Source of the DNA: an uncultured Lentisphaeraceae bacterium
GTDB lineage: Bacteria > Verrucomicrobiota > Kiritimatiellia > RFP12 > DVOR01
Length of the DNA stretch: 64,000 nucleotides
Direction: 5' to 3'
NCBI GenBank assembly: GCA_949289005.1
Contig: CASEMQ010000034.1
Span: 59,964 to 123,963, forward strand
The notes below the pieces were generated by a model. It ran no database searches. It had not been told where the DNA came from and saw nothing but the letters and a program-made list of their open reading frames with translations. The translations under genes and the position numbers were made by a program. Below are positions 7,644 through 55,919 of this stretch, one piece after another. Within the stretch, counting starts at the first letter, position 1. Each line of letters starts with the position of its first letter.

Positions 7644-9556
7644 TTGGGCTTCTTTGGCAGTGTTGCGTCGTGGGGTTGATCGCGTTGGCGTGTTCGTTGG
7701 CGCTGACGCCCGTGGCGCGTGGGTTCATGCGGCGCATCGGCGCGATCGACAAGCCCGATCCGCGGCGCGTCAATCGCGTGCCCGTGCCGCGAGGCGGCGG
7801 GTTGGCGGTGGTGGTGGCCTTCTTCGTGGCGGTGGCGGTGGCGGTGCACGTCTGGCCGGGGGTATGGGCGCATTCGGCCTTTGCGGGCATCCTGCCGTGG
7901 TTCGTGCCGGCGGCCGTGCTGTTGGTGGCGGTGGGGTTCGTGGACGATCGTTTCGGCCTGCCGCCGGTGGTCAAGCTGGCGGCACAGATTGTCTCGGCGG
8001 CGATTTTGTGCTGGGGCGGGGCGCGGTTGACTTTCCCCGAGGCGTGGGGGGCGTGGGTGGCCGAGCCGTGGGTGTATGTGCCGCTCACGTTGGTGTGGTA
8101 TATCGGCGTGGTCAATGCCTTCAATCTGATCGACGGGTTGGACGGGCTCTCCTCCGGGCTGGCGATTTTGGGCACGGTGGGCATCGCGGGCGCCTTTCTC
8201 TTCGTGGAGCCCACGGCGCTGCCGGTGGCCTCGGCGGCTTTCGTGGGAGCCTTGCTGGGCTTTCTGCGTTACAATTACAACCCGGCGTCCGTCTTTCTGG
8301 GCGATTCGGGGAGTCTCTTCGTGGGGCTGACGGTGGCGACGCTGGCGTTGGTGTCGCGGCGGAGCGACGCGTTCCTGGTGTCGATGGGCATCCCCGTGTT
8401 GTGCCTGGGCGTGCCGTTGATCGACACGGGGCTGGCCGTCTTGCGGCGCACGTTGCGCTATATGTTGCGCCGGCTGGACGCGCCGCAGGGCACGGAGGGC
8501 GGCACCGGCGCGGTGATGACGGCCGATCGCGATCATGTCCACCATCGCTTCCTGGCGCTGGCGCACGGCAATCAGCGTCGCGCCGTCTGGGCGCTCTATG
8601 GGCTGGCCGCGGTGCTGATGGCGCTGGGGTTCGTGGCGTTGGCGGTTCGCGAGGCCAAGGCCACCGCCTTTATCATCGGCTTTTGCGCCTTCGCGGCGGT
8701 AATCGTCCGCGCGATGACGAACGTGGAGTTATGGGACGCGGGGCGGTTGCTCGCGCGCCCCGGCGCGCGTTGCGGCCGGCGCACCGCCACCGTGATCTTC
8801 TATGTGCTGAGCGACGTGGCGGTGATGGTCGCGCTCTATGTCGCGTTGCTGTGGCTGCTGTGGGATTTTCTCCCGGCGTATTCCCTGCGGAGGTTCCTCA
8901 ACTTCTTCTTGGCCTATTCGGTGCCGGTGGCGGTGGCGATGGTGTTGGTGCGGGCGTACACGCGCATTTGGGGGCGCAGCACGCGCAAGGATTCCTTTAT
9001 GGTCGTGGCCGCTGTGGCCGGCGGGTCGCTGGTCTCCCACCTGACGCTTGCCTATCTGGTGCCCGAATTGGCGGGTGCGATGGTGCGCTTCCATGTGCTT
9101 TGGGCGGCGTTGTTGCCGTTGCCGCTCTTGATGGCGCGCTTGGCGAAGACGGCGTTTTTGCAGTGGCTGGCCTTCGCCGAGAACCGCCGCCTGTGCCGCC
9201 GGTCGTTGCAGGATGCCTCCATCCCGCGCGTGTTGTTCTATGGCGCCGGGGTGAGCCTGCGCGCGACCATCACGCTCTACGAGGTCAACGTGACACGCAA
9301 CCACATGGCGCTTATCGGCGTGCTGGACGACAATCTGGGCCTCCACGGGCGCATCTTCCGCGACCTGCCCATCTTTGGCCCGCTGGAGGTCTTGGAGGAG
9401 GATCCCGACCTGTTCGCCCGTCTCCGCCCCACGCAAATCGTCGTCACCACGCCTGCAATCCCGCCCGCCCGCCTGGCGGAGATTCGCGCTTTCTGCGACG
9501 CGCATGGCATCGCCCTCTTGCGGAGCGTCATCGAGCAGTCGCCGCGGCCGCTCTGA
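7640..9556 (+). CDS. polyprenyl-phosphate HexNAc-1-phosphate transferase (WecA/MraY family) fused to C-terminal TM plus CoA-binding-like domain
   Basis: N-terminal ~350 aa carry the MraY/WecA motif VNAFNLIDGLDGL and multiple TM helices. C-terminal ~250 aa resemble the WbaP/WbpM-type CoA-binding domain (RVLFYGAG...IGVLDDN...PIFGP). ATGA overlap with DegT. Confidence 0.7.
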   Translation: MIGLLWQCCVVGLIALACSLALTPVARGFMRRIGAIDKPDPRRVNRVPVPRGGGLAVVVAFFVAVAVAVHVWPGVWAHSAFAGILPWFVPAAVLLVAVGFVDDRFGLPPVVKLAAQIVSAAILCWGGARLTFPEAWGAWVAEPWVYVPLTLVWYIGVVNAFNLIDGLDGLSSGLAILGTVGIAGAFLFVEPTALPVASAAFVGALLGFLRYNYNPASVFLGDSGSLFVGLTVATLALVSRRSDAFLVSMGIPVLCLGVPLIDTGLAVLRRTLRYMLRRLDAPQGTEGGTGAVMTADRDHVHHRFLALAHGNQRRAVWALYGLAAVLMALGFVALAVREAKATAFIIGFCAFAAVIVRAMTNVELWDAGRLLARPGARCGRRTATVIFYVLSDVAVMVALYVALLWLLWDFLPAYSLRRFLNFFLAYSVPVAVAMVLVRAYTRIWGRSTRKDSFMVVAAVAGGSLVSHLTLAYLVPELAGAMVRFHVLWAALLPLPLLMARLAKTAFLQWLAFAENRRLCRRSLQDASIPRVLFYGAGVSLRATITLYEVNVTRNHMALIGVLDDNLGLHGRIFRDLPIFGPLEVLEEDPDLFARLRPTQIVVTTPAIPPARLAEIRAFCDAHGIALLRSVIEQSPRPL

Positions 9557-28235: not shown

Positions 28236-28285
28236 TTTCCCGCCTTCGCCCATACCCCGCGCCGTGAACGCATGGCGCGGATTGG

Positions 28286-28315
28286 TTGCCTCGCCGCCGC
28301 GGGTTTTGTTAGAAT
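28286..28315 (+). promoter_or_regulatory. promoter TTGCCT-18-TGtTAGAAT for the PEP-CTERM gene
   Basis: -35 TTGCCT and extended -10 TGTTAGAAT, 34 nt upstream of ATG 28350 with RBS AGGAAAGG. Confidence 0.55.
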
Positions 28316-28349
28316 GGCGTCGCGTTTGTCAAAGGAAAGGTGTCTTGCG

Positions 28350-29009
28350 ATGAGAGTGTTCGCGCTTGCTTTCGCGTTGTTGGGGCTGACCGGCTGGGCC
28401 AGGGCGGCCGCGGTCGATTGGTCGGCGGGGGACACGTTCACCTCGCAAAGCACGACCTTCTCGGTGGCGATCACCTTCCAGGGAAGCGCCATCGAGGGGA
28501 TGTCGGGCGACGGGCTCTACATCGGGCACAACGCGGGCACGAATGAAGGGAAAAAGCAGGCCGGGCCTTGGGCCGCGGTGGGCACGGGCGGCCGCGTCTG
28601 GAAAAAGGGCAGCAACCCATACACCGACAATGGCCACACGGATACGTGGGGGCAGTCGGGTGAGGATAATTCCACGTCCGGGCGCTATGCGCTGGCTGGC
28701 GGCCAGGCCGTGAACATCCTTTCCGATCGCGTGGACGGGCTGAATGTCTTGGGCATCGTGGTGGAGGTGGTGGACTCGAGCGTCATCTATCATTATTGGT
28801 TGAATGGCGTGGAGGTCGGCACGTTCTCGCACAACAACATCGGCCAAAACGTTCGCACGTGGGACAATCTCTCCACTGCCATCGAAGGGGAATTGTGGTG
28901 GATGGAGGGCGAGGCGACGGCGGCGCAGTTCGCGCAGTTGCCGGAGCCGACGGCGCTGGCGCTGCTGGCGCTGGGCGTGGCGGGGTTGGCGTTGCGCCGG
29001 CGCGCGTGA
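28350..29009 (+). CDS. secreted PEP-CTERM sorting-domain protein
   Basis: N-terminal signal peptide. C-terminus LPEPTALALLALGVAGLALRRRA matches the PEP-CTERM exosortase signal. Confidence 0.7.
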   Translation: MRVFALAFALLGLTGWARAAAVDWSAGDTFTSQSTTFSVAITFQGSAIEGMSGDGLYIGHNAGTNEGKKQAGPWAAVGTGGRVWKKGSNPYTDNGHTDTWGQSGEDNSTSGRYALAGGQAVNILSDRVDGLNVLGIVVEVVDSSVIYHYWLNGVEVGTFSHNNIGQNVRTWDNLSTAIEGELWWMEGEATAAQFAQLPEPTALALLALGVAGLALRRRA

Positions 29010-30765: not shown

Positions 30766-33700
30766 ATGAAGAGCGTTCTGTATGTTTGCGCCACTTTGCT
30801 GGGCGTGGTTCCTTTTGCGGCGGCGCAGACGGATTACGCGTCCATCTATACTTGGGAAATCGTTGATGGCGAGGCCCATATTTTGGATGTCAAAACAACG
30901 CTTTCCGGGGAAGTCGCGATTCCTGCCGAGTTGGATGGCTATCCTGTGACATCCGTTGGTGTCGCGGAACTTCCTGACGGACTCGCGGCCAAGGCGGGGC
31001 GCGATGGGTTCAATGGGCAGACCCGCATCACGGCGGTAACGATTCCACCGAGCGTCAAAACAATCGGCGACGACGCCTTCCGTGGGTGCACCGCGTTGGA
31101 GCGTGTGGCGCTCTCCTCCCCTGTGACGATCGGGGATTTTGCCTTCCGCGATTGCACTTCACTGCGGGAATTGGACGCGACGTATTTTCCGACGACGACC
31201 GTCTACTCCGGGTCTGAAGCCAATACGGCCTTTTATGGATGCGCCAATCTGCGCTTTGTGGGGCCGGAGAGCAAGGTCGTCGACGGGTCATTGGTCGATT
31301 GCCAGACGCTGGTTCGTGCGGCTGCCGGGACGGAGGAGGTCACGGTCCCGGAGGAAATCACGATGTTGGGGTATGCGGCTTTCGGCGGTTCGTCGCAACT
31401 GAAAACCGTCCACTTTATGGGACCGCCCCCATCGTGGTTTTACTGGAACGCGCCGGCTGACAATTGTGTCTTTTCCCCTTCCATCACCACGGTCACTTAT
31501 CGTTCCAAGTATGCCGCGGAGTGGGAGTCTTTTCTTGACGGGAAGAAAACCTGGACCGTTCAGTGCGCGGTGCTCAATGGCAATTCCTATCCCGTCCGCA
31601 CCATGACCTTCAACGTTGAGCCTTATGGCACGTGGGCACTCCAAGGGAACGCCAAGTATCTGACGTTTGAGGGTGGCACGGTGACGGGGCTTTCCAACAA
31701 GTCCGTTTCGGGCGAATTGGCGATTCCTGCGGAATATGACGGGCAGACGATCACGGGCATTTATCAGGACGCGTTCACGGACTGCACGCGCATCACGTCG
31801 GTGACGGTGCCGGGGACGGTTTCGACGATTGGCTTTCGCACGTTTGTGCGGATGACGGGCATGAAGGAAATCGTCTTCCAGGAGGGCGTGCAGGAAATCA
31901 CGTGGGGGGCGTTCTCGGATTGCACGGCGCTCAACCGCATCGTCATCCCGGCCAGTTGCACACGTATCGACGAGATCGCTTTCGACACGTGCGGGAAAAT
32001 CACGTTCGAGGTCGCCTCGGACAACCCCACGTATACCGCGGTCGATGGCGCCTTGTTGTCCAAAGACGGCCGGACGTTGGTTTTTGCCCCGGGTAGCGTC
32101 ACAAGCTACACGATTCCGGAAACGGTGACGGATGTTGCCGCGTTCGCGTTCGGAACGGATCAGCCGATTGCTTCGATCGACGTGCCGAGTTCCGTGTCCT
32201 ATTTGCCATCGACATGCTGTTGGTATAACACGACCGTCCGAAAGATTACCTTTCACGGCAATCCGCCGGAGGGCGGCATACCGGATGTCAATGTATGGAT
32301 CGAGGGGAACCCGTGGCCAACCACGGTGACGGGCTATTACCCGAAGTCGCGGGAGACGGCGTGGAAGGCGGCGATGGCGGCGGACGACGACGGGGACGAC
32401 GCCAAGTGGCATGGGCTGAAGATGGCGTCTTACCAGGACATCACGGGGCCGGCGCAGTATCTGACGTATGACGGCGGCACGGTCTCTGGCATTTCCAACA
32501 AGGGTGCCTCGGGCGCGCTGGTGATTCCGGACGAGATCGCGGACACGCCAATCTGGGCGATTTCCCAGGACGCGTTCACGGATTGCACGCGGATCACGTC
32601 GGTGACGGTGCCGGGGACGGTTTCGACGATCGGGAACCGTACGTTTGTGCGGATGACGGGCCTGAAGGAGATCGTCTTCCAAGAGGGCGTGCAGGAAATC
32701 ATGTGGGGGGCGTTCTCGGACTGCACGGCGCTCAACCGCATTGTCATCCCCGCCAGTTGCACAAGTATCGATGAGAGCGCCTTCGACACGTGCTACGAGA
32801 TTGCCTTTGAGGTTTCGCCGGACAACCCGGTCTACAAGTCGGTGGATGGCGCGTTGCTGACGAAGGACGGCACGAAGCTGATTTACGCGCCCGGGAACGT
32901 CACGGCCTACACAATCCCGGACACGGTGACGGAAATCGCGCGGTATGCTTTTGGCGCGGGGCAATCGCTGGGGGCGGTGAAGTTGGCCTCGGTGACGGTC
33001 CCGAAATCGGTGGAGACGATTCCGGAGAGTGCCTTCGCGTTCGGGTTCGGCGCGGTGAACGTGGACGCGGGCAACCCGAACTTCTCGTCCGAGAACGGCG
33101 TGCTTTACGACAAGGACAAGACGGCGTTGCTCCATGTCCCCACGACGGCCACGTCGTTCACGGTGCCGGATTCGGTGACGCGCATCGGGATGGGGGCGCT
33201 TTCCGAATGTGCGCTCACGTCTGTCGTTTTCTCGGACATGGGCACGTTGCGAGAAATCGGCGACCAGGCGTTCTGGGGCAGCAAACTCCGGACGCTGACG
33301 CTTCCCGAAGGCGTGGAACGCCTTGGATACGAAATCGCCGGCTGTTGCGAGAGCCTCTCGACGATTGTCTTCCCGGAGACGTTGACGGACTTGGGCGGGC
33401 AAGGTTTCACGGATTGTGATGCCTTGCGGCGGGTGGAGTTTCATGGCCTGCCGCCGTCGGAGGGAAGCACAGGCATCGTGCTCTATCATAACGCGGCGAA
33501 GGGCTATTATCCCGCAAGCTACGCGCCTGCCTGGGAGGCCGTGCTCAACGCGGACGGCACGTGGGGCGAAGGTATGCCGGAATATGGCCTTTACGCGCTC
33601 GCGATGGCCGTCTATGACGATGCGCCGACGGGGACGATGGCGCAACTGGAGTTCGCGGAGAATGGCGAGGGGGTGACGCTTGTCAAGGTGCCGGCCGGGT

Positions 33701-36300
33701 TTTCCGGGGCGTTGACGATCCCCGCGACGTGGCGTGTGGCGCGAGGCGAGGGTGCGTACGAGCGTTTGCCCGTGACGGCGATCGCGCCGGGGGCGTTCGC
33801 GGGGTGCACGCGTTTGACCTCGGTGGTCATCCCAGGCTCGGTGAGGACGGTGGGAGACGGCGTCTTCGCCGGGTGTTCCGCCCTGACGGCGGTCACCTTC
33901 CAAGAGGGGGTCGGGCGGCTGGAGGGGGTGGTCTTCGCGGACTGCGCGAAGTTGGCGAAGGTGAAGATGCCCGCGACGCTGACGGCCATCGCGCGCACGC
34001 CTTTCCTGGAGGCTTGCCCGGAAATCGCCTTCGAGGTGGCGTCGGACAATCCGGTCTATCAATCGAGCGGCGGCGCGTTGCTGGACGCGGGGTGCACGCG
34101 GTTGCTGGTCGGCCCGGGCAACGTGGCGACGTATGTGGTGCCGGCGGGGGTGACGGCAATCGCGGACTACGCGTTCGCGGCGGGGCAGTCGTTGGGAACC
34201 GTCAAACTCGCGACGGTCACGGTGCCGGCGGGCGTGACGGCGATTGGCGACTATGCCTTTGCCTTCGGCATCGACAAGGTGAACGTGGCGGAGGGGGACC
34301 CGGCCTATGCCTCCGTGGACGGCGCGCTTTTCGACAAGACCAAGCGCACCTTGCTGCACGTGCCTTGCACGCCGACGACCTTTGCCATCCCGGAGGGCGT
34401 GGAGACAATCGCCGCCGGCGCGTTCTCCGCATGCGCGGTCACGGCGATAACCATCCCGGAGGGTGTGACGGACATCGGCGGCGACGCGTTTGTCGGGTGC
34501 ACGCGCCTGACGGCGCTGACGTTGCCGGCGTCGTTGCGCGCGTGGGGCGGCGACGGCGGCGTGTCGTTGGATACATGCACGGCACTTGCCACCATCACCT
34601 TCACCGGACAGCCCGATACGTTGGAGATCGACGGGGCCACGTGGCCGGCAAAGGCGAAAGGGCGCTATCCCGCGCTCTGGACGGGCTATTGGGAGGCCGC
34701 GCTGGACGAGGCGGGCACCTTCCATGGCCTGCCGATGGTCGCCTATGCGCCGACTGGCGCGGCGGGTTCGCTGACCTATGACCCCACGAGCACCGACCCC
34801 GTCGTGACGGGCATCGCCACCTCGGCCGGCGGTGCGTTGGAGATCCCGCAGGGCGTGACGGCCATCGCGCCGGGCGCGCTTGACGGCGCCTCGCGGCTGA
34901 CCGCCGTGACGGTGCCGGGTTCCGTCGCCACCATTCAGGCCGGCACGTTCACGAACCTGGCCGGGCTTGCGACGGTGACGTTGCAAGAGGGCGTGACGCG
35001 GATTGAGGCGGGGGCGTTCGAGGGTTGCGCCAAGCTGACAAAGGTGGTCATCCCCGCTTCCTGCACGGCCATCGATCCCCGCGCTTTCGCGAATTGCCCG
35101 GACATCGCCATCGAGGTGGCCGAGGGCAACCCGGTCTACGCCTCTGTGGATGGCGCGTTGCTGAGCAAGGATGGCACGGTGCTGTATCTTGCGCCCGGCA
35201 ACGTCACGGCCTATGCCATCCCGGGAACGGTCACGACAATCGCCTCGGGGGCCTTTGGCGCGGGGCAGGCGCAGGGAAGCAAGAAGTTGGCCTCGGTGAC
35301 AATCCCGGCCTCGGTCGTGAAAATCGCGGAGGGCGCGTTCGCGGGCTTTGGCAAGGTGACGGTGGCGGATGGGAACCCGGCCTATGCCTCCACGTCGGAC
35401 GGTGCGTTGTTCGACAAGGCGCGCACGACCCTGTTCCATGTGCCCAACACGTTGTCCGGGGCTTACACGGTGCCCGAGGGCGTCGCGACGATCGCGGCGG
35501 AGGCGTTCCGCGATTGCACGGCGCTCACCGCCGTGACCTTCCCCACCACGCTCGCAGCCATTGGGCGCGATGCGTTCGCCGGTTGCACGAAGGTTGGCAC
35601 GCTCACTTTCCTGGGGCTTCCGCCCGCGACGGTGGGCGAGGGCGCCTTTGGCACGTGCACAGCGGGCGCGTATCCCAACGCCTATTGGGAGGAATGGGTG
35701 GCAGCCATGGGGGCGGAGGGCGTTTGGCACGGCTTGGCCATGTCGACCACGCCCTTCACCACCATCGTCCGTCGCGTCGGCAGCGGCACGGTGAACGACG
35801 GCGCCACGAACATCACGACCTTCCCGCGGACGATGAGCTATCAGCCCGGGCAGACGGTCACGCTCACGGCCACGCCCGCCAAAGGCTACGTCTTCCTGGG
35901 GTGGTCGGGCGCCGGCATCGAGACGCACGGCGCGGAGGCGACCTTCCCCGCCGGCGGCGCGCCGGAGATCACGGCCCATTTCGTCACGCAAGCCGTGGCC
36001 GATTCGATGGAGGCGGTCGGCGTCGGCGGCATGGATTCCTCCTTGGAGGAGGCGCTCGCCAATGGCGATGTGTTCACCAAGGAGCAGATCCAGGAGATGG
36101 CCTTCGGCGCGCCGCTCTTCGAGGTAAAGGACGGCGAGGCGACCATCGGGCTCACCTTGCGCACCGCCGAGGCGCTTGACGGCGACTGGGAAGCGCTCAA
36201 GCCGAGCGATGTCGTCGTCGGCGCGGACGGGACCATCTCCATCAAGGTCTCGGTCGAGGGGAAGACGCGCTTCTATAAGTTCGTCGTCCCGGAAAAGTGA
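30766..36300 (+). CDS. giant secreted cell-surface protein with BspA-type leucine-rich repeats and C-terminal Listeria-Bacteroides (Flg_new) repeat domain
   Basis: 1844 aa with signal peptide. Reiterated modules IPxSVxxIGxxAFxxCxxLxxV (LRR_5/BspA type) in 4-5 ~265-aa super-repeats. C-terminal GYVFLGWSG motif. Confidence 0.8.
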   Translation: MKSVLYVCATLLGVVPFAAAQTDYASIYTWEIVDGEAHILDVKTTLSGEVAIPAELDGYPVTSVGVAELPDGLAAKAGRDGFNGQTRITAVTIPPSVKTIGDDAFRGCTALERVALSSPVTIGDFAFRDCTSLRELDATYFPTTTVYSGSEANTAFYGCANLRFVGPESKVVDGSLVDCQTLVRAAAGTEEVTVPEEITMLGYAAFGGSSQLKTVHFMGPPPSWFYWNAPADNCVFSPSITTVTYRSKYAAEWESFLDGKKTWTVQCAVLNGNSYPVRTMTFNVEPYGTWALQGNAKYLTFEGGTVTGLSNKSVSGELAIPAEYDGQTITGIYQDAFTDCTRITSVTVPGTVSTIGFRTFVRMTGMKEIVFQEGVQEITWGAFSDCTALNRIVIPASCTRIDEIAFDTCGKITFEVASDNPTYTAVDGALLSKDGRTLVFAPGSVTSYTIPETVTDVAAFAFGTDQPIASIDVPSSVSYLPSTCCWYNTTVRKITFHGNPPEGGIPDVNVWIEGNPWPTTVTGYYPKSRETAWKAAMAADDDGDDAKWHGLKMASYQDITGPAQYLTYDGGTVSGISNKGASGALVIPDEIADTPIWAISQDAFTDCTRITSVTVPGTVSTIGNRTFVRMTGLKEIVFQEGVQEIMWGAFSDCTALNRIVIPASCTSIDESAFDTCYEIAFEVSPDNPVYKSVDGALLTKDGTKLIYAPGNVTAYTIPDTVTEIARYAFGAGQSLGAVKLASVTVPKSVETIPESAFAFGFGAVNVDAGNPNFSSENGVLYDKDKTALLHVPTTATSFTVPDSVTRIGMGALSECALTSVVFSDMGTLREIGDQAFWGSKLRTLTLPEGVERLGYEIAGCCESLSTIVFPETLTDLGGQGFTDCDALRRVEFHGLPPSEGSTGIVLYHNAAKGYYPASYAPAWEAVLNADGTWGEGMPEYGLYALAMAVYDDAPTGTMAQLEFAENGEGVTLVKVPAGFSGALTIPATWRVARGEGAYERLPVTAIAPGAFAGCTRLTSVVIPGSVRTVGDGVFAGCSALTAVTFQEGVGRLEGVVFADCAKLAKVKMPATLTAIARTPFLEACPEIAFEVASDNPVYQSSGGALLDAGCTRLLVGPGNVATYVVPAGVTAIADYAFAAGQSLGTVKLATVTVPAGVTAIGDYAFAFGIDKVNVAEGDPAYASVDGALFDKTKRTLLHVPCTPTTFAIPEGVETIAAGAFSACAVTAITIPEGVTDIGGDAFVGCTRLTALTLPASLRAWGGDGGVSLDTCTALATITFTGQPDTLEIDGATWPAKAKGRYPALWTGYWEAALDEAGTFHGLPMVAYAPTGAAGSLTYDPTSTDPVVTGIATSAGGALEIPQGVTAIAPGALDGASRLTAVTVPGSVATIQAGTFTNLAGLATVTLQEGVTRIEAGAFEGCAKLTKVVIPASCTAIDPRAFANCPDIAIEVAEGNPVYASVDGALLSKDGTVLYLAPGNVTAYAIPGTVTTIASGAFGAGQAQGSKKLASVTIPASVVKIAEGAFAGFGKVTVADGNPAYASTSDGALFDKARTTLFHVPNTLSGAYTVPEGVATIAAEAFRDCTALTAVTFPTTLAAIGRDAFAGCTKVGTLTFLGLPPATVGEGAFGTCTAGAYPNAYWEEWVAAMGAEGVWHGLAMSTTPFTTIVRRVGSGTVNDGATNITTFPRTMSYQPGQTVTLTATPAKGYVFLGWSGAGIETHGAEATFPAGGAPEITAHFVTQAVADSMEAVGVGGMDSSLEEALANGDVFTKEQIQEMAFGAPLFEVKDGEATIGLTLRTAEALDGDWEALKPSDVVVGADGTISIKVSVEGKTRFYKFVVPEK
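31765..31974 (+). repeat. intragenic near-identical direct repeat A (~95% identical to 32568-32777)
   Basis: e.g. GCGTTCACGGA(C/T)TGCACGCG(C/G)ATCACGTCGGTGACGGTGCCGGGGACGGTTTCGACGAT shared; offset 803 bp. Confidence 0.8.
32568..32777 (+). repeat. intragenic near-identical direct repeat B (partner of 31765-31974)
   Basis: Same ~210-bp segment encoding the AFTDCTRITSVTVPGTVSTIG...ALNRIVIPASCT module. Confidence 0.8.
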
Positions 36301-48672: not shown

Positions 48673-48705
48673 GCGGGGCGCGCGGACGCGCGCCCCGCCT
48701 TTTTT
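48673..48705 (+). terminator. rho-independent terminator after CARF nuclease gene
   Basis: Stem GCGGGGCGCGC/GCGCGCCCCGC, then CTTTTTTG. Confidence 0.6.
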
Positions 48706-48913
48706 GTGCCCACGCGACAAAATGCGGAGGGAGCCCAAACACCTCCAAAAACCGCCTCTCCCTCCACATTTCGAAACTCGTTCGCCTACAATGTCTTGTA
48801 AATAAAATCCATTGCGATGTCCCTCCTCCCCGTCCCCAAAAATAGCCTCCAAAACCGTCTCCCTCCGCATCCGCCCAATAAAGCGTTTGACCACAACATC
48901 AAACTATGCTACA
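48706..48913 (+). other. putative CRISPR leader (AT-enriched, promoter-like TACAAT / TTGTAAATAAAAT)
   Basis: Lies between the terminator and the first repeat, on the side opposite the degenerate terminal repeat. Locally AT-rich in a GC-rich window. Confidence 0.4.
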
Positions 48914-49176
48914 GTCACACCATCGTTCAAGGCCGAAAGGCTATTGCGACAGTTCCTTGGTGAAGAAGTCCATAATGGAATCCTTTCTGTCACACCATCG
49001 TTCAAGGCCGAAAGGCTATTGCGACTGGCGATGAGTGAGATTCATCCAGCAATTGTTTCCGGTCACACCATCGTTCAAGGCCGAAAGGCTATTGCGACTA
49101 ATGAATGCCCCGATACCAACAAGGACGATTCCGAGTCCAGTCACACCATCGTTCAAGGCCGAAAGGCGCTTGCGAT
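48914..49176 (+). CRISPR. CRISPR array: 4 repeats of 37 bp (GTCACACCATCGTTCAAGGCCGAAAGGCTATTGCGAC), 3 spacers (38, 36, 41 bp), last repeat degenerate
   Basis: Three identical repeats at 48914, 48989 and 49062 plus a degenerate fourth at 49140 (GCGCTTGCGAT end). Unique AT-richer spacers. The repeat 3' end ATTGCGAC resembles the ATTGAAAC crRNA 5' handle. Confidence 0.85.
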
Positions 49177-49297: not shown

Positions 49298-49486
49298 TTG
49301 TCGATAACCGGGGCCGGTGCTGTTGAAAACTTGTTGAAAGTCTGCCTGCCTCGGGGAGGGCCAAAACCGTTTTTTCAATCAGGGAGCGGGGTCGTTTTTC
49401 GAGACACGCCGTATCTCGCATCGAGGCACGGCGTGTCTTGCCTCGGGATACGGCGTGTTCCGGAATGGTTTGGCCTGTCAATAACC
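49298..49486 (+). repeat. structured intergenic repeat element, copy 3 of 3 (plus orientation)
   Basis: Hairpin GAGACACGCCGT/ACGGCGTGTCTT with G-T wobble. Flanked by TTGTCGATAACC (start) and TGTCAATAACC (end). Confidence 0.6.
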
Positions 49487-49616: not shown

Positions 49617-49717
49617 TTGCGCGACTTTCCTGCGACGTGTCTTAGGATACGTTCCCCGTTGCGGGCAAGCCCCGACGTCCGGGGCAGCGGTGGAAGGTGT
49701 CAACCCTCAAAGCAAGG

Positions 49718-49984
49718 ATGCACACCATGATTGACAAGAATGCGATTCGCGAGCAGTTCCGTCGCCATGAGCGCGACACGGGCTCCAGCGAGGTTCAGAT
49801 CGCCACGCTGACGAAGCGTATTGAGCAACTCACCGAGCACCTGAAGGTCAACAAGAAGGACAATTCTTCGCGTTATGGCCTGATTCGCATGGTGAACAAC
49901 CGCCGCAAGCTGTTGGATTATCTGAAGCGCACGAACGAGGCGTCCTATCGCAAGGTGGTGGCGGATCTCGGCCTGCGCCGCTAA
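49718..49984 (+). CDS. rpsO: 30S ribosomal protein S15
   Basis: [54 protein letters not shown] matches S15. Start ATG 49718 or 49727. Confidence 0.85.
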
Positions 49985-53981: not shown

Positions 53982-55919
53982 TCAGGGGGTGGCGGATGGC
54001 GTGAGGCGAATGAGGAAGCCTCCGCCGGGGGCGCAGGGGAGGGTGAGGGTGTCTTGGGCGGTGACGGTGCGGGTCTGGAGGATGTAGTCGGTGGGGACGG
54101 CGTCTGAGACGGGGCTGTCGCGGAGGATGGTGGCGGTGTAGGTGACGCCGGGGACGAGGTCGGCGAGGGGAATGGCGAGGTCTCGGGCTTGGGGGCCGAC
54201 GATGGCGGCAATCCAGTGCGCGTCGCCTTTGCGGCGGCGGACGAGGAGGAGGGCGTCGGGGGCGGAGGCGGGGTCGCAGCGGGTGTCGTCCCACGTGAGG
54301 GGGAGGTCGGCGAGGAAGCGGGTATAGGCGGGTTCGCGGGCGTAGGCGGAGGGACTGTCGCAGAACACGCGGAAGTTGGTGTCCAGGAGCATGAGGAGCG
54401 CGGCTTGGCGGCAGCGGGTGCCCATGGACATGGGGCGGGAGACGTTGGGGCGAAAGGTCTGGCGAGTGGCGTTGCGCATGGCGCCGGGGGTGTAGTCGGC
54501 GGGGCCGGCGAGGAGGCGGGTGAAGGGGATGCGCAGGTCGTTGGTGATGAAGTCGAGGTCGTTGCCGGCCCATTTGGCGGTCTCCAGGCCGAGGATGCCT
54601 TCGTAGGTGAGGACGTTGGGGAAGGTGCGCGAGAGGCCGGTGGGCTTGTGGATGCCGTGGTAGTCGAGAACCATGCGGTGCTTGGCCGCAAGCGCGGCGG
54701 TCTCGCGGAGGAAGTGGGCGATGGCGGCATCGTCGCGGTCGAAGTGGTCGATCTTGAAGCCTTTGACGCCCATCCGGGCGTAGTGGGCGAAAAGCGCGTC
54801 CTGGCGGCCATAGAGCGCCCCCCAGTCGGCCCAGAGGACGAGGCCGACGTTCCTTTTTTTGGCGTACGCCAGGAGCGCGGGGAGGTCAAGCCCGGGCGCC
54901 ACTTTCAAGAGGTCGTCGCCTTGGCTCCAGCCGGAGTCGATGAGGGCGTAGGGGAGGCCGAGGTCCGCGGCGAAGTCAATGTAGGCCCGGTAGGTCTCGG
55001 TGTTTATGCCGGGCTTGAAGGGGGTGTCGTCGAGCCCGAAGGCGTTCCATCACTCCCAGGCGCACGCGCCGGGCTTGACCCAAGAGAAGTCGCCCTGGGC
55101 CGGCTCGGAGAGTGCCATGACCAGGTCATTGCCATAGAGGCCGGCAGCGTTGTCGGCCAGCATGAAGATGCGCCAAGGCAGGGCGCGGGGGCCGGGCGTG
55201 CGCACAAGCCATGGCTCGCGGGCGACGACAAGGCGCTGGCGGCCGGTGGCCTCCACTTTGGCCGGGAAACGCGCCATGGCCGCGACGAGCCGCCCAGGGG
55301 GCTCAATCGGGCGGCGTAGGTTCAGCCCGGGATAGTCGCGCACCTCGGCCTCCGCAAGGGCGAGTGCCACGCCATCGCCCAACAGCGTGACGGGAAGGTA
55401 GATCAAGTGCTTAGGGTCGATTTTCCCAAGGGCGGAGCGGTTGTGGGTGGACTCGAAGTCGCCTTGGAAGTGGTCGCCGCGGTATCCCGCCGGATTGTAG
55501 CCATAGAGCAGCTCGGGCTCGCCCGCGGGGGCGAAGGTGAACGTCTCGTCGCGAATTTCCGCCTCGCCCGCCGCCACAATCGTCCAACGATAGGCCACGC
55601 CTTGGTCGGTGGACAGGATGGTGAGCGACAGGTCGCCAAAGTCCGCCGTCGCGCAGTTGGCTTTCAGGTCGATGTGTGCGCGCACGGTGTGGAACGGCAC
55701 CTCGGCGGAGAAGTCGTGCGCAAAGGTCGTCACCCGCGGCGTGCCGCCGAGCCTTGCCCCTGCCACCTCTAGGCCGATGGGCGCAGGCGCCAAGATTGGC
55801 TTGCCCCGGCGGGAGACGGCAAAAAGCAATCGTTCGCCTTCCCGCGAGACGGTGAGCGTATTGGTCCCATCGGGGGAGGTGACGGACATTAGCATGGCAA
55901 GCGCGGCCTCGGGCAACAT
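53982..55919 (-). pseudogene. glycoside hydrolase family 97 alpha-glucosidase gene interrupted by one in-frame TGA (minus strand 55052-55050)
   Basis: ORFs 55919-55050 and 54908-53982 are in the same frame. Read-through gives ...SWVKPGACAWE*WNAFGLDD..., and the stop sits where GH97 proteins carry a conserved Trp-rich motif. Confidence 0.7.

Follow-up and report, generated by a model that had tools for sequence, protein, structure and literature searches.

Does a CRISPR (short palindromic repeats, clustered and regularly interspaced) array of only three spacers, lying in a stretch of 64,000 nucleotides that carries none of the genes expected to extend or use it, still take part in defence, and with which partners? 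The array in question occupies positions 48914-49176 of that stretch, hereafter the window (contig CASEMQ010000034.1 of NCBI GenBank assembly GCA_949289005.1, positions 59,964 to 123,963, from an uncultured Lentisphaeraceae bacterium), and an earlier, sequence-only reading had described it as tiny, lacking an adaptation module nearby, and perhaps decaying or maintained in trans. We find that it is a genuine small CRISPR array, and that together with a Card1/Can2-like gene directly upstream it probably forms a two-part 'satellite' of a type III-B system, served in trans by Cmr proteins and Cas1-Cas2.

The array is built on a 37-nt repeat (GTCACACCATCGTTCAAGGCCGAAAGGCTATTGCGAC), present in three identical copies and a fourth with 3 mismatches to the consensus, in agreement with the coordinates and mismatches first reported; there are no further copies in the window, and the chance expectation for such matches is 0 in dinucleotide-preserving shuffles. 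The three spacers also have the lengths given earlier (Table 1) and are all unique, none having a second copy within 3 mismatches across the window, and all fall below the 0.66 GC of the window, so that their description as foreign-looking stands. CRISPR arrays in general are made up in this way: three or more direct repeats, nearly the same in sequence and 23-55 nt long, alternate with unique spacers that vary little in length, a leader with a promoter lies on one side, and a degenerate repeat closes the other. In the predicted fold of the repeat RNA there is a GGCC-GAAA-GGCU hairpin, which contains the GCC-GAAA-GGC mini-hairpin recognized before and is followed by UAUUGCGAC. For the last 8 nt of the repeat, ATTGCGAC, the likeness claimed was too modest: beyond being similar to ATTGAAAC of type I/III repeats, they are identical to the 8-nt 5' handle of CRISPR RNAs (crRNAs) in Thermus thermophilus type III systems, AUUGCGAC (PMC8157118), and, judged by sequence, would form a type III handle.

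Upstream of the array, the 208-nt leader is 70-79% identical in full-length alignment to the leaders that follow cas2 in L007 (79%), L130, L132 (72.5%), L133 and L135, which are complete type III-B loci except that L130 is a short contig; the one shuffle control, a shuffled L132 leader, reached a maximum of 129 matches against 140 for the unshuffled sequence. Its conserved blocks are AAAATGCGGAGGGAGC (48719-48734), the inverted partner CTCTCCCTCCACATTTC (48756-48772) and CTCCCTCCGCATCCGCCCAATAA (48859-48881), and the features conserved across the leader family are an inverted AAAATGCGGAGGGAG / CTCCCTCCRCATTT pair and a promoter at the repeat junction. In the window the promoter-like site runs into the array, its -10 element taking in the first two bases of repeat 1, and the arrangement TTGAC…TAC(A/T)GT is also kept in the leaders of L007 and L008. 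The intrinsic terminator that had been proposed just upstream of the leader is present as described, and is kept in the related loci L002 and L003.

A CTCCCTCCRCAT(TT) motif recurs three times in the leader, at the positions of the conserved blocks, and also in the leaders of L007, L008, L130 and L132. Two of the three copies form an inverted repeat (AAAATGCGGAGGGAG … CTCCCTCCACATTT); the motif is kept throughout the leader family and may be a protein-binding site for integration or regulation.

The sole CRISPR-associated gene in the window ends 275 nt upstream of repeat 1. It was overlooked earlier, and the apparent isolation of the array therefore holds for adaptation genes, which are absent from the window, but not for this neighbor. 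Its 411-aa product contains a CARF domain at residues 9-119 (Pfam PF23400, CARF_Card1, 35.6 bits, cutoff 24.6) and a nuclease domain (PF09002, Card1_endonuc, 43.7 bits, cutoff 26.4). The CARF domain aligns with that of Can2 (phmmer against 7BDV, E 1.8e-5), and the motif …EFDVA…IVECKSG… (D301…E314-C-K316) aligns with the catalytic ExK region of Can2 (…ELDV…IECK…), D301, E314 and K316 being invariant across 5 homologues. Can2 is a metal-dependent DNase/RNase of type III systems that requires cyclic tetra-adenylate (cA4), and mutation of the equivalent catalytic residues inactivates it (PMC7969007). An AlphaFold2 model of the protein was weak (predicted local distance difference test 59.6, predicted template-modelling score 0.35, from an alignment of 5 sequences); a fold search with this low-confidence model (Foldseek), used as consistency evidence only, gave Card1/Can2 structures as all of the top 8 matches in the Protein Data Bank (PDB) (E 8e-8 to 9e-5), at template-modelling (TM) scores of only ~0.2. 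By its domains and motif the product is a Card1/Can2-family protein, a predicted type III ancillary effector activated by cyclic oligoadenylate (cOA), and would supply beside the array the cOA-responsive effector characteristic of type III-B systems. Compared with a relative at 82% identity, the ratio of non-synonymous to synonymous substitution rates (dN/dS) is ~0.15 at a dS of 0.59, from which the gene is judged to be under purifying selection. Only four clusters of homologues had enough shared words to be detected.

Comparison among strains shows what has happened to the locus in the recent past. The order glgA … GH3, card1, array, rpsO, recO … rpoN is shared by homologues at 82-95% and by ten further contigs with near-identical Card1; it is identical in >10 strains and in a lineage at ~92% flank identity, and the card1-array arrangement is retained in L003, where Card1 has diverged by 18%. 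The nine assembled arrays at this site fall into six spacer sets comprising 27 distinct spacers (Table 1). Most sister strains agree with one another at 99.6-99.9% identity over the 11.5-kb upstream flank, and strains this close carry wholly different sets; the window itself is 98.8% identical to most sisters and 96.2% to L138. The leaders of the window and L002 are essentially identical (~100%), and leader, promoter and repeats are perfectly conserved. Spacer polymorphism extends to addition at the leader end, since L137 carries the five spacers of L138 plus two leader-proximal extras, which, with the homology to cas2-following leaders, bears out the left-hand placement of the leader. Among arrays assembled to their end, the degenerate terminal repeat is identical in L002, L137, L138, L139, L141, L143 and L145, and has one extra substitution in L140 and L142. 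Because the identical degenerate copy ends the arrays of seven sister strains, it is, on this sequence comparison, an ancestral repeat, and it lies at the leader-distal end, as had been supposed for the window.

The differing spacer sets, the leader-end additions in L137, the card1 dN/dS of 0.15 and the conserved leader and arrangement together argue for an array that is active, still gaining spacers and not decaying. The suggestion of decay is not supported by these comparisons, and that of maintenance in trans is supported by the spacer turnover and by selection on the effector. The label 'minimal' fits this strain, with its 3 spacers, but not its sister strains, which have 4-8.

One sister strain stands apart in its flanks. 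L138 (ERZ16268139 scaffold_612) has a mosaic 11.5-kb flank, 96-97% identical to the sisters and 95% to the L003 lineage; its array nonetheless has exactly the five spacers found in L139, L141 and L145, a combination suggesting that recombination took place around the array region or that this region was transferred.

The identity of the partner system is indicated by relatives of the repeat, leader and effector. Card1 homologues at 44-45% identity are located within complete type III-B loci, in which NCBIfam models identify Cas10/Cmr2, Cmr3, Cmr4, Cmr5, Cmr6 and Cmr1, followed by Card1, Cas1, Cas2, leader and array. Repeats beside the cmr and cas1-cas2 genes of L007, L008 and L009 (e.g. GTCGCACCATCTCCCAAAGCCGAAAGGCTATTGCGAC) match the window repeat at 32 of 37 positions and are identical to it in the 3' half, GCCGAAAGGCTATTGCGAC (3' 19 nt). 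Wherever the repeat/leader family lies next to cas genes, these are the Cmr-type III-B set (L006, L007-L009, L132, L133, L135), and in L051, a Kiritimatiellota metagenome-assembled genome (MAG) that was closest in a motif scan, the sizes and order of open reading frames (ORFs) match the Cmr layout of L007, a likeness of ORF layout only and not of typed families; the short contig L130 carries card1-cas1-cas2-array only. That scan, for two copies of the repeat 3' motif in GTDB species representatives, returned 117 loci, mostly from MAGs of Kiritimatiellae, Lentisphaerae/Victivallales and Verrucomicrobiota, many of them from rumen or gut. The search for the same repeat at other loci, which had been proposed as a check, found the exact variant only at the equivalent site of sister strains, and homologues beside cas genes rather than a dispersed non-CRISPR repeat. 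Cas10/Cmr2 proteins of the related loci are short (438-475 aa), keeping the GGDD motif and lacking the HD motif, and the related systems must therefore act via cyclic-nucleotide signaling. No Cas6 gene is recognizable by NCBIfam in the related III-B loci, and for that reason crRNA processing in this family from the Planctomycetes-Verrucomicrobia-Chlamydiae (PVC) group may be carried out by a distant or non-canonical enzyme. The Cas10/Cmr2, Cmr3-6 and Cmr1 genes that define a type III-B locus are present in the loci of these relatives only; since the window is without them, it is to be read as a satellite of a type III-B system and not as a type III-B locus itself.

The related loci have further features in common. 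Their CARF effector slot is modular (L130:383-1516; L135:15544-16734; L132), containing Card1-like proteins just 24-27% identical to one another, a Cas_NE0113-family protein, or no effector, with flanking Cas1 proteins 48-68% identical. Directly upstream of cas10 every related III-B locus has a conserved ORF of 130-143 aa (motifs GNTFP…SFWGHE…VLSPD…WHLLRL; Table 1). Its identification as a Crn2/AcrIII-1 cA4 ring nuclease was considered and rejected, the sole hint being a faint match to Pfam STIV_B116-like/DUF1874 (E 0.14) and a profile search of the PDB being empty. In L006, about seven tandem 22-nt units (GCCGCTGATCCACTTCGGGTCA) follow right after the last cmr gene (8501-8676).

Which locus might supply the missing proteins is a more tentative matter. 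A 24-mer of the exact repeat had 0 matches in GTDB species representatives, and a variant-specific repeat 24-mer had 0 in JGI metagenomes; neither collection therefore contains the source lineage. As partner loci, the contigs belonging to five clusters of Cas1 homologues (L130-L136) were set aside, their repeats being related but different, and two Cas1 contigs sourced from NCBI were uninformative. The best candidate partner is L132 (scaffold_3619 of sample ERZ16268095). Sister strain L139 (scaffold_143) is from that sample too, and in tetranucleotide composition L132 correlates with the window at 0.987 (L139, 0.988). It consists of Cmr1/Cmr3-6, Cas1-2 and an array, with a GGDD, HD-less Cas10, and no CARF gene lies between its cmr1 and cas1. 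Its leader is not specially close to that of the window; the idea that it was the nearest was rejected on comparison with L007. A split type III-B system, with an L132-like locus for sensing and adaptation (mini-Cas10 cyclase, Cmr1, Cmr3-6, Cas1-2) and the window array, under its own promoter, together with Card1 as a stable chromosomal memory-executioner satellite, is possible, and we put it forward as a rather doubtful proposal.

If the satellite is functional, its operation can be sketched as follows. The array would be transcribed rightward from the promoter at the leader-repeat junction, in keeping with the observed motif and polarity, and the precursor crRNA would be cut just 3' of the GGCC-GAAA-GGCU hairpin, by analogy with Thermus, to leave AUUGCGAC as the 5' handle. 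Family membership suggests that the crRNAs would then load into a Cmr complex encoded elsewhere, with a short, HD-less GGDD Cas10 as in the relatives; that pairing with invader mRNA would trigger synthesis of cOA, most likely cA4; and that this second messenger would bind the Card1/Can2-like CARF domain, whose PD-ExK nuclease would degrade nucleic acids and halt the infection. A Cas1-Cas2 integrase, presumably also encoded elsewhere, would insert new spacers next to the leader; their acquisition is seen at population level.

The spacers give some indication of what is targeted. Spacer GC averages ~0.50 (range 0.26-0.66) against 0.66 for the host. Spacers 4 and 23 overlap, matching at 35 of 36 positions with an offset of 2 nt and in the same orientation, and the first L003 spacer has a counterpart in the complete L007 locus that agrees with it at 22 of 24 positions; all three overlapping pairs from different strains are co-oriented, and such independent overlaps suggest, at the level of sequence, shared invaders. 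The reverse complement of spacer 1 reads AAAGGA-N7-ATGGACTTC…, i.e. a Shine-Dalgarno (SD) sequence and a start codon. Of 100 family spacers, 13 have an SD…ATG motif on the target-sense strand (complementary to crRNA), where shuffles lead one to expect ~3.8, and 3 have it on the spacer strand; the window lineage taken by itself gives 3 vs 1 (p ~0.05). The excess may reflect a bias towards 5' transcript ends, and the asymmetry between strands fits crRNAs that would be antisense to mRNAs.

Many spacers lie over translation-initiation regions; by regular expression, examples are spacer 1 of the window and spacers 9 and 13 of sister strains; by eye, spacers 4, 6, 10, 19, 20 and 23 also put an ATG at a gene start.

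Several points weigh against the satellite. Annotation of essentially all plausible ORFs in the window found no Cas1, Cas2, Cas6, Cas10/Cmr or RAMP genes, and no contig was found that pairs cmr or cas1-cas2 genes with the exact repeat variant of the window; the repeat of L132 differs from it at 7 of 37 positions, with handle and hairpin retained. Searches of the spacers against viral, plasmid and metagenome collections, the other check that had been proposed, yielded chance matches only and no protospacer in IMG/VR, JGI metagenomes, INPHARED phages or PLSDB plasmids. They covered window spacers 1-3 and sister-strain spacers 8, 9 and 13 by exact search of IMG/VR; window spacers 1-3 and L002 spacers 4-7 by blastn against phages and plasmids (best match 23 nt, E 0.09, chance-level); twenty further spacers by blastn against phages only, without a match; and two regions independently targeted by different strains in IMG/VR, one of them also in JGI, where nothing was found. 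If a large ancestral array had lost different spacers in different strains, disjoint sets could in principle result, but the 27 spacers and the leader-end additions make this unlikely. Finally, we infer transcription, processing, cA4 specificity and nuclease activity alike.

The same absence of effector-complex and adaptation genes would also be expected of a decaying relic, a type III-B locus that has lost cmr and cas1-cas2, leaving a non-functional card1 and an array that can only lose spacers. The arrays are indeed short (3-8 spacers), and a partner locus with the exact repeat was not found. Against decay stand the two extra leader-end spacers of L137 relative to L138, L139, L141 and L145, the 27 different spacers present in strains whose flanks mostly diverge by <=1.2%, an intact card1 evolving under constraint, and a perfectly conserved leader, promoter and repeats in an arrangement kept across 18% protein divergence; we regard a relic as quite improbable. 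Somewhat less improbable, though still unlikely, is that the array serves another CRISPR-Cas system in trans (of a further type III subtype, or of type I with a compatible Cas6 and handle), Card1 being a signaling effector that is merely co-located. Repeats ending in ATTGNGAC are found in many arrays and phyla, the Cas1 proteins of the related loci score best against type I-like models, and sharing of arrays between systems is documented in work cited in PMC11229360. However, every relative of the repeat and leader that lies beside cas genes is Cmr-type III-B (L051 by ORF layout), and the presence of a CARF effector beside the array speaks for a partner that makes cOA, and hence for type III.

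Mini-arrays are known on mobile elements, as described in PMC11656645, and the small size of this one, together with a local GC of 0.56-0.58 at 48-50 kb, would suit a mini-array on a prophage, plasmid or island used in competition between elements. The flanks are nonetheless housekeeping genes (glgA, glgB, ispD and GH3 on one side, rpsO, recO and rpoN on the other) in conserved synteny, and the ORF annotation of the window shows no integrase, phage or plasmid genes, which makes a mobile mini-array very improbable indeed. As for an interspersed or tandem repeat of non-CRISPR origin, the CRISPR-DR families of Rfam gave no significant match to the repeat, but homologous repeats beside cas1-cas2 and cmr genes, unique and hypervariable spacers added with polarity, and a conserved leader leave that explanation effectively refuted. 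The satellite of a type III-B system is the reading we prefer.

Table 1. Coordinates of features of the array, its neighbor gene and related loci, and distribution of spacer sets among strains. Positions without a locus label are those of the window.
Feature	Location	Strand	Remarks
card1/can2-like gene, 411 aa	47403..48638	+	N-terminal CARF and C-terminal PD-(D/E)xK nuclease
Intrinsic terminator of card1-like transcript	48673..48705	+	11-bp all-GC stem (48673-48698), 4-nt loop, T-run
CRISPR leader, 208 nt	48706..48913	+	homology to cas2-adjacent leaders
Promoter-like site TTGACC, 17 nt, TG-n-TACAGT	48887..48915	+	9/12 matches, TG extension
Repeat 1, consensus, 37 nt	48914..48950	+	
Spacer 1, 38 nt, GC 0.39	48951..48988	+	no match elsewhere in window, in IMG/VR or in phages/plasmids
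Repeat 2, consensus	48989..49025	+	
Spacer 2, 36 nt, GC 0.47	49026..49061	+	sole match chance-level, 23 nt, E 0.09
Repeat 3, consensus	49062..49098	+	
Spacer 3, 41 nt, GC 0.49	49099..49139	+	
Terminal degenerate repeat, 3 mismatches (…GGCGCTTGCGAT)	49140..49176	+	identical copy ends sister-strain arrays
Cas10/Cmr2	L009:1051-2394, L006:2676-3992, L132:774-2201, L133:12756-14180, L135:17167-18543		
130-143-aa ORF	L009:650-1054, L006:2284-2679, L132:346-777, L133:12345-12737, L135:16759-17160		
Spacer set 1-3	window		
Spacer set 4-7	L002		
Spacer set 10-14	L138 = L139 = L141 = L145		
Spacer set 8, 9, then 10-14	L137		
Spacer set 15-22	L140 = L142		
Spacer set 23-27	L143		

The card1-array module sits between the GH3 glycosidase gene and rpsO, on a contig of 501 kb and among housekeeping genes of a high-GC PVC-group host that probably belongs to Kiritimatiellota. 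Annotated genes of the window include lpxI, icd, an RND efflux pump, nifS/nifU, proS, hisS, aroB, a Ser/Thr kinase, glgA, glgB, ispD and the GH3 glycosidase, as well as rpsO, recO, rpoN, a GH97 glycosidase and a large leucine-rich-repeat protein of the BspA type. At 49397-49465, in the gap that separates the array from rpsO (49697-49984), lies an imperfect 34-nt palindrome composed of two to three 22-nt units (TCGAGACACGCCGTATCTCGCA…). It is conserved in L002, follows a terminator-like site (49367-49389), and may serve to regulate rpsO or as a terminator of the array. The GH97 glycosidase is split into two ORFs on the - strand (53982-54908 and 55050-55919), the N-terminal domain being apart from the catalytic and C-terminal domains, and sister strains (L137) have it in the same divided form, so that either a true pair of genes or a frameshift of long standing may be the explanation. 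The BspA-type protein (30766-36300, 1844 aa) is encoded in a stretch of lower GC (0.59-0.61 against 0.66) and adjoins a PEP-CTERM protein (28272-29009).

What looked like a tiny orphan array can thus be interpreted as an actively updated type III array paired with a Card1/Can2 effector; its host is an uncultured member of the PVC group, from a metagenome series that was sampled densely. The locus offers natural examples of leader-end spacer gain between strains >99.9% identical, of an ancillary effector under selection away from its Cas10 sensor, and of a widespread PVC repeat/leader family tied to very small HD-less Cas10 proteins and to loci without a recognizable Cas6. Arrays used in trans and effector-less loci are already known; what is mildly unusual here is that array and ancillary nuclease stay paired, with the sensor and adaptation genes elsewhere. 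Current understanding is not overturned, and the locus could be used to test how type III components act in trans. Proof of the split with an L132-type locus would make it a natural model well suited to type III signaling in trans: a population-level case of the inter-locus cOA signaling proposed by Hoikkala et al., and also of trans-adaptation into an array whose repeat is 7/37 positions off that of the sensor locus.

Among known systems, the type III (Csm/Cmr) arrays of Thermus thermophilus have the same 8 nt at the repeat 3' end, a repeat of ~36-37 nt and a small GC hairpin just upstream of the handle, and Thermus scotoductus arrays were retrieved by the same 3' motif scan; the window differs in the unrelated 5' two-thirds of its repeat, in its PVC-group host and in the detachment of the array from effector genes. 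The neighbor gene product resembles Card1 of Treponema succinifaciens (PDB 6WXW/6XL1) and Can2 (PDB 7BDV, 8BAO) in having both Pfam domains above cutoff, the D…ExK motif and, for the low-confidence model, these structures as best fold matches, and differs in its very low sequence similarity to the solved members (~14-17% over the fold alignments; E 1.8e-5 by sequence) and a longer inter-domain region. Card1 and Can2 are cA4-activated CARF nucleases, and family membership suggests a similar ligand and activity for the window protein.

Type III loci that are cyclase-positive and effector-less led Hoikkala et al. (Nucleic Acids Research 2024, PMC11229360) to propose inter-locus cOA signaling. L132 is such a locus, and the window would be the reciprocal part, a CARF effector without Cas10, whereas the linkage between the two rests on a shared sample and on composition (r = 0.987), their repeats being 7/37 apart. 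Isolated ('orphan') arrays used in trans by distant cas clusters are well documented, as set out by Bernheim et al. (Nucleic Acids Research 2019, PMC7145637). The window array is like the orphan arrays described there in lying >15-47 kb from effector or adaptation genes and yet having signs of activity; compared with that description, it differs in keeping one ancillary effector as a neighbor and in its documented gain of spacers at the level of strains.

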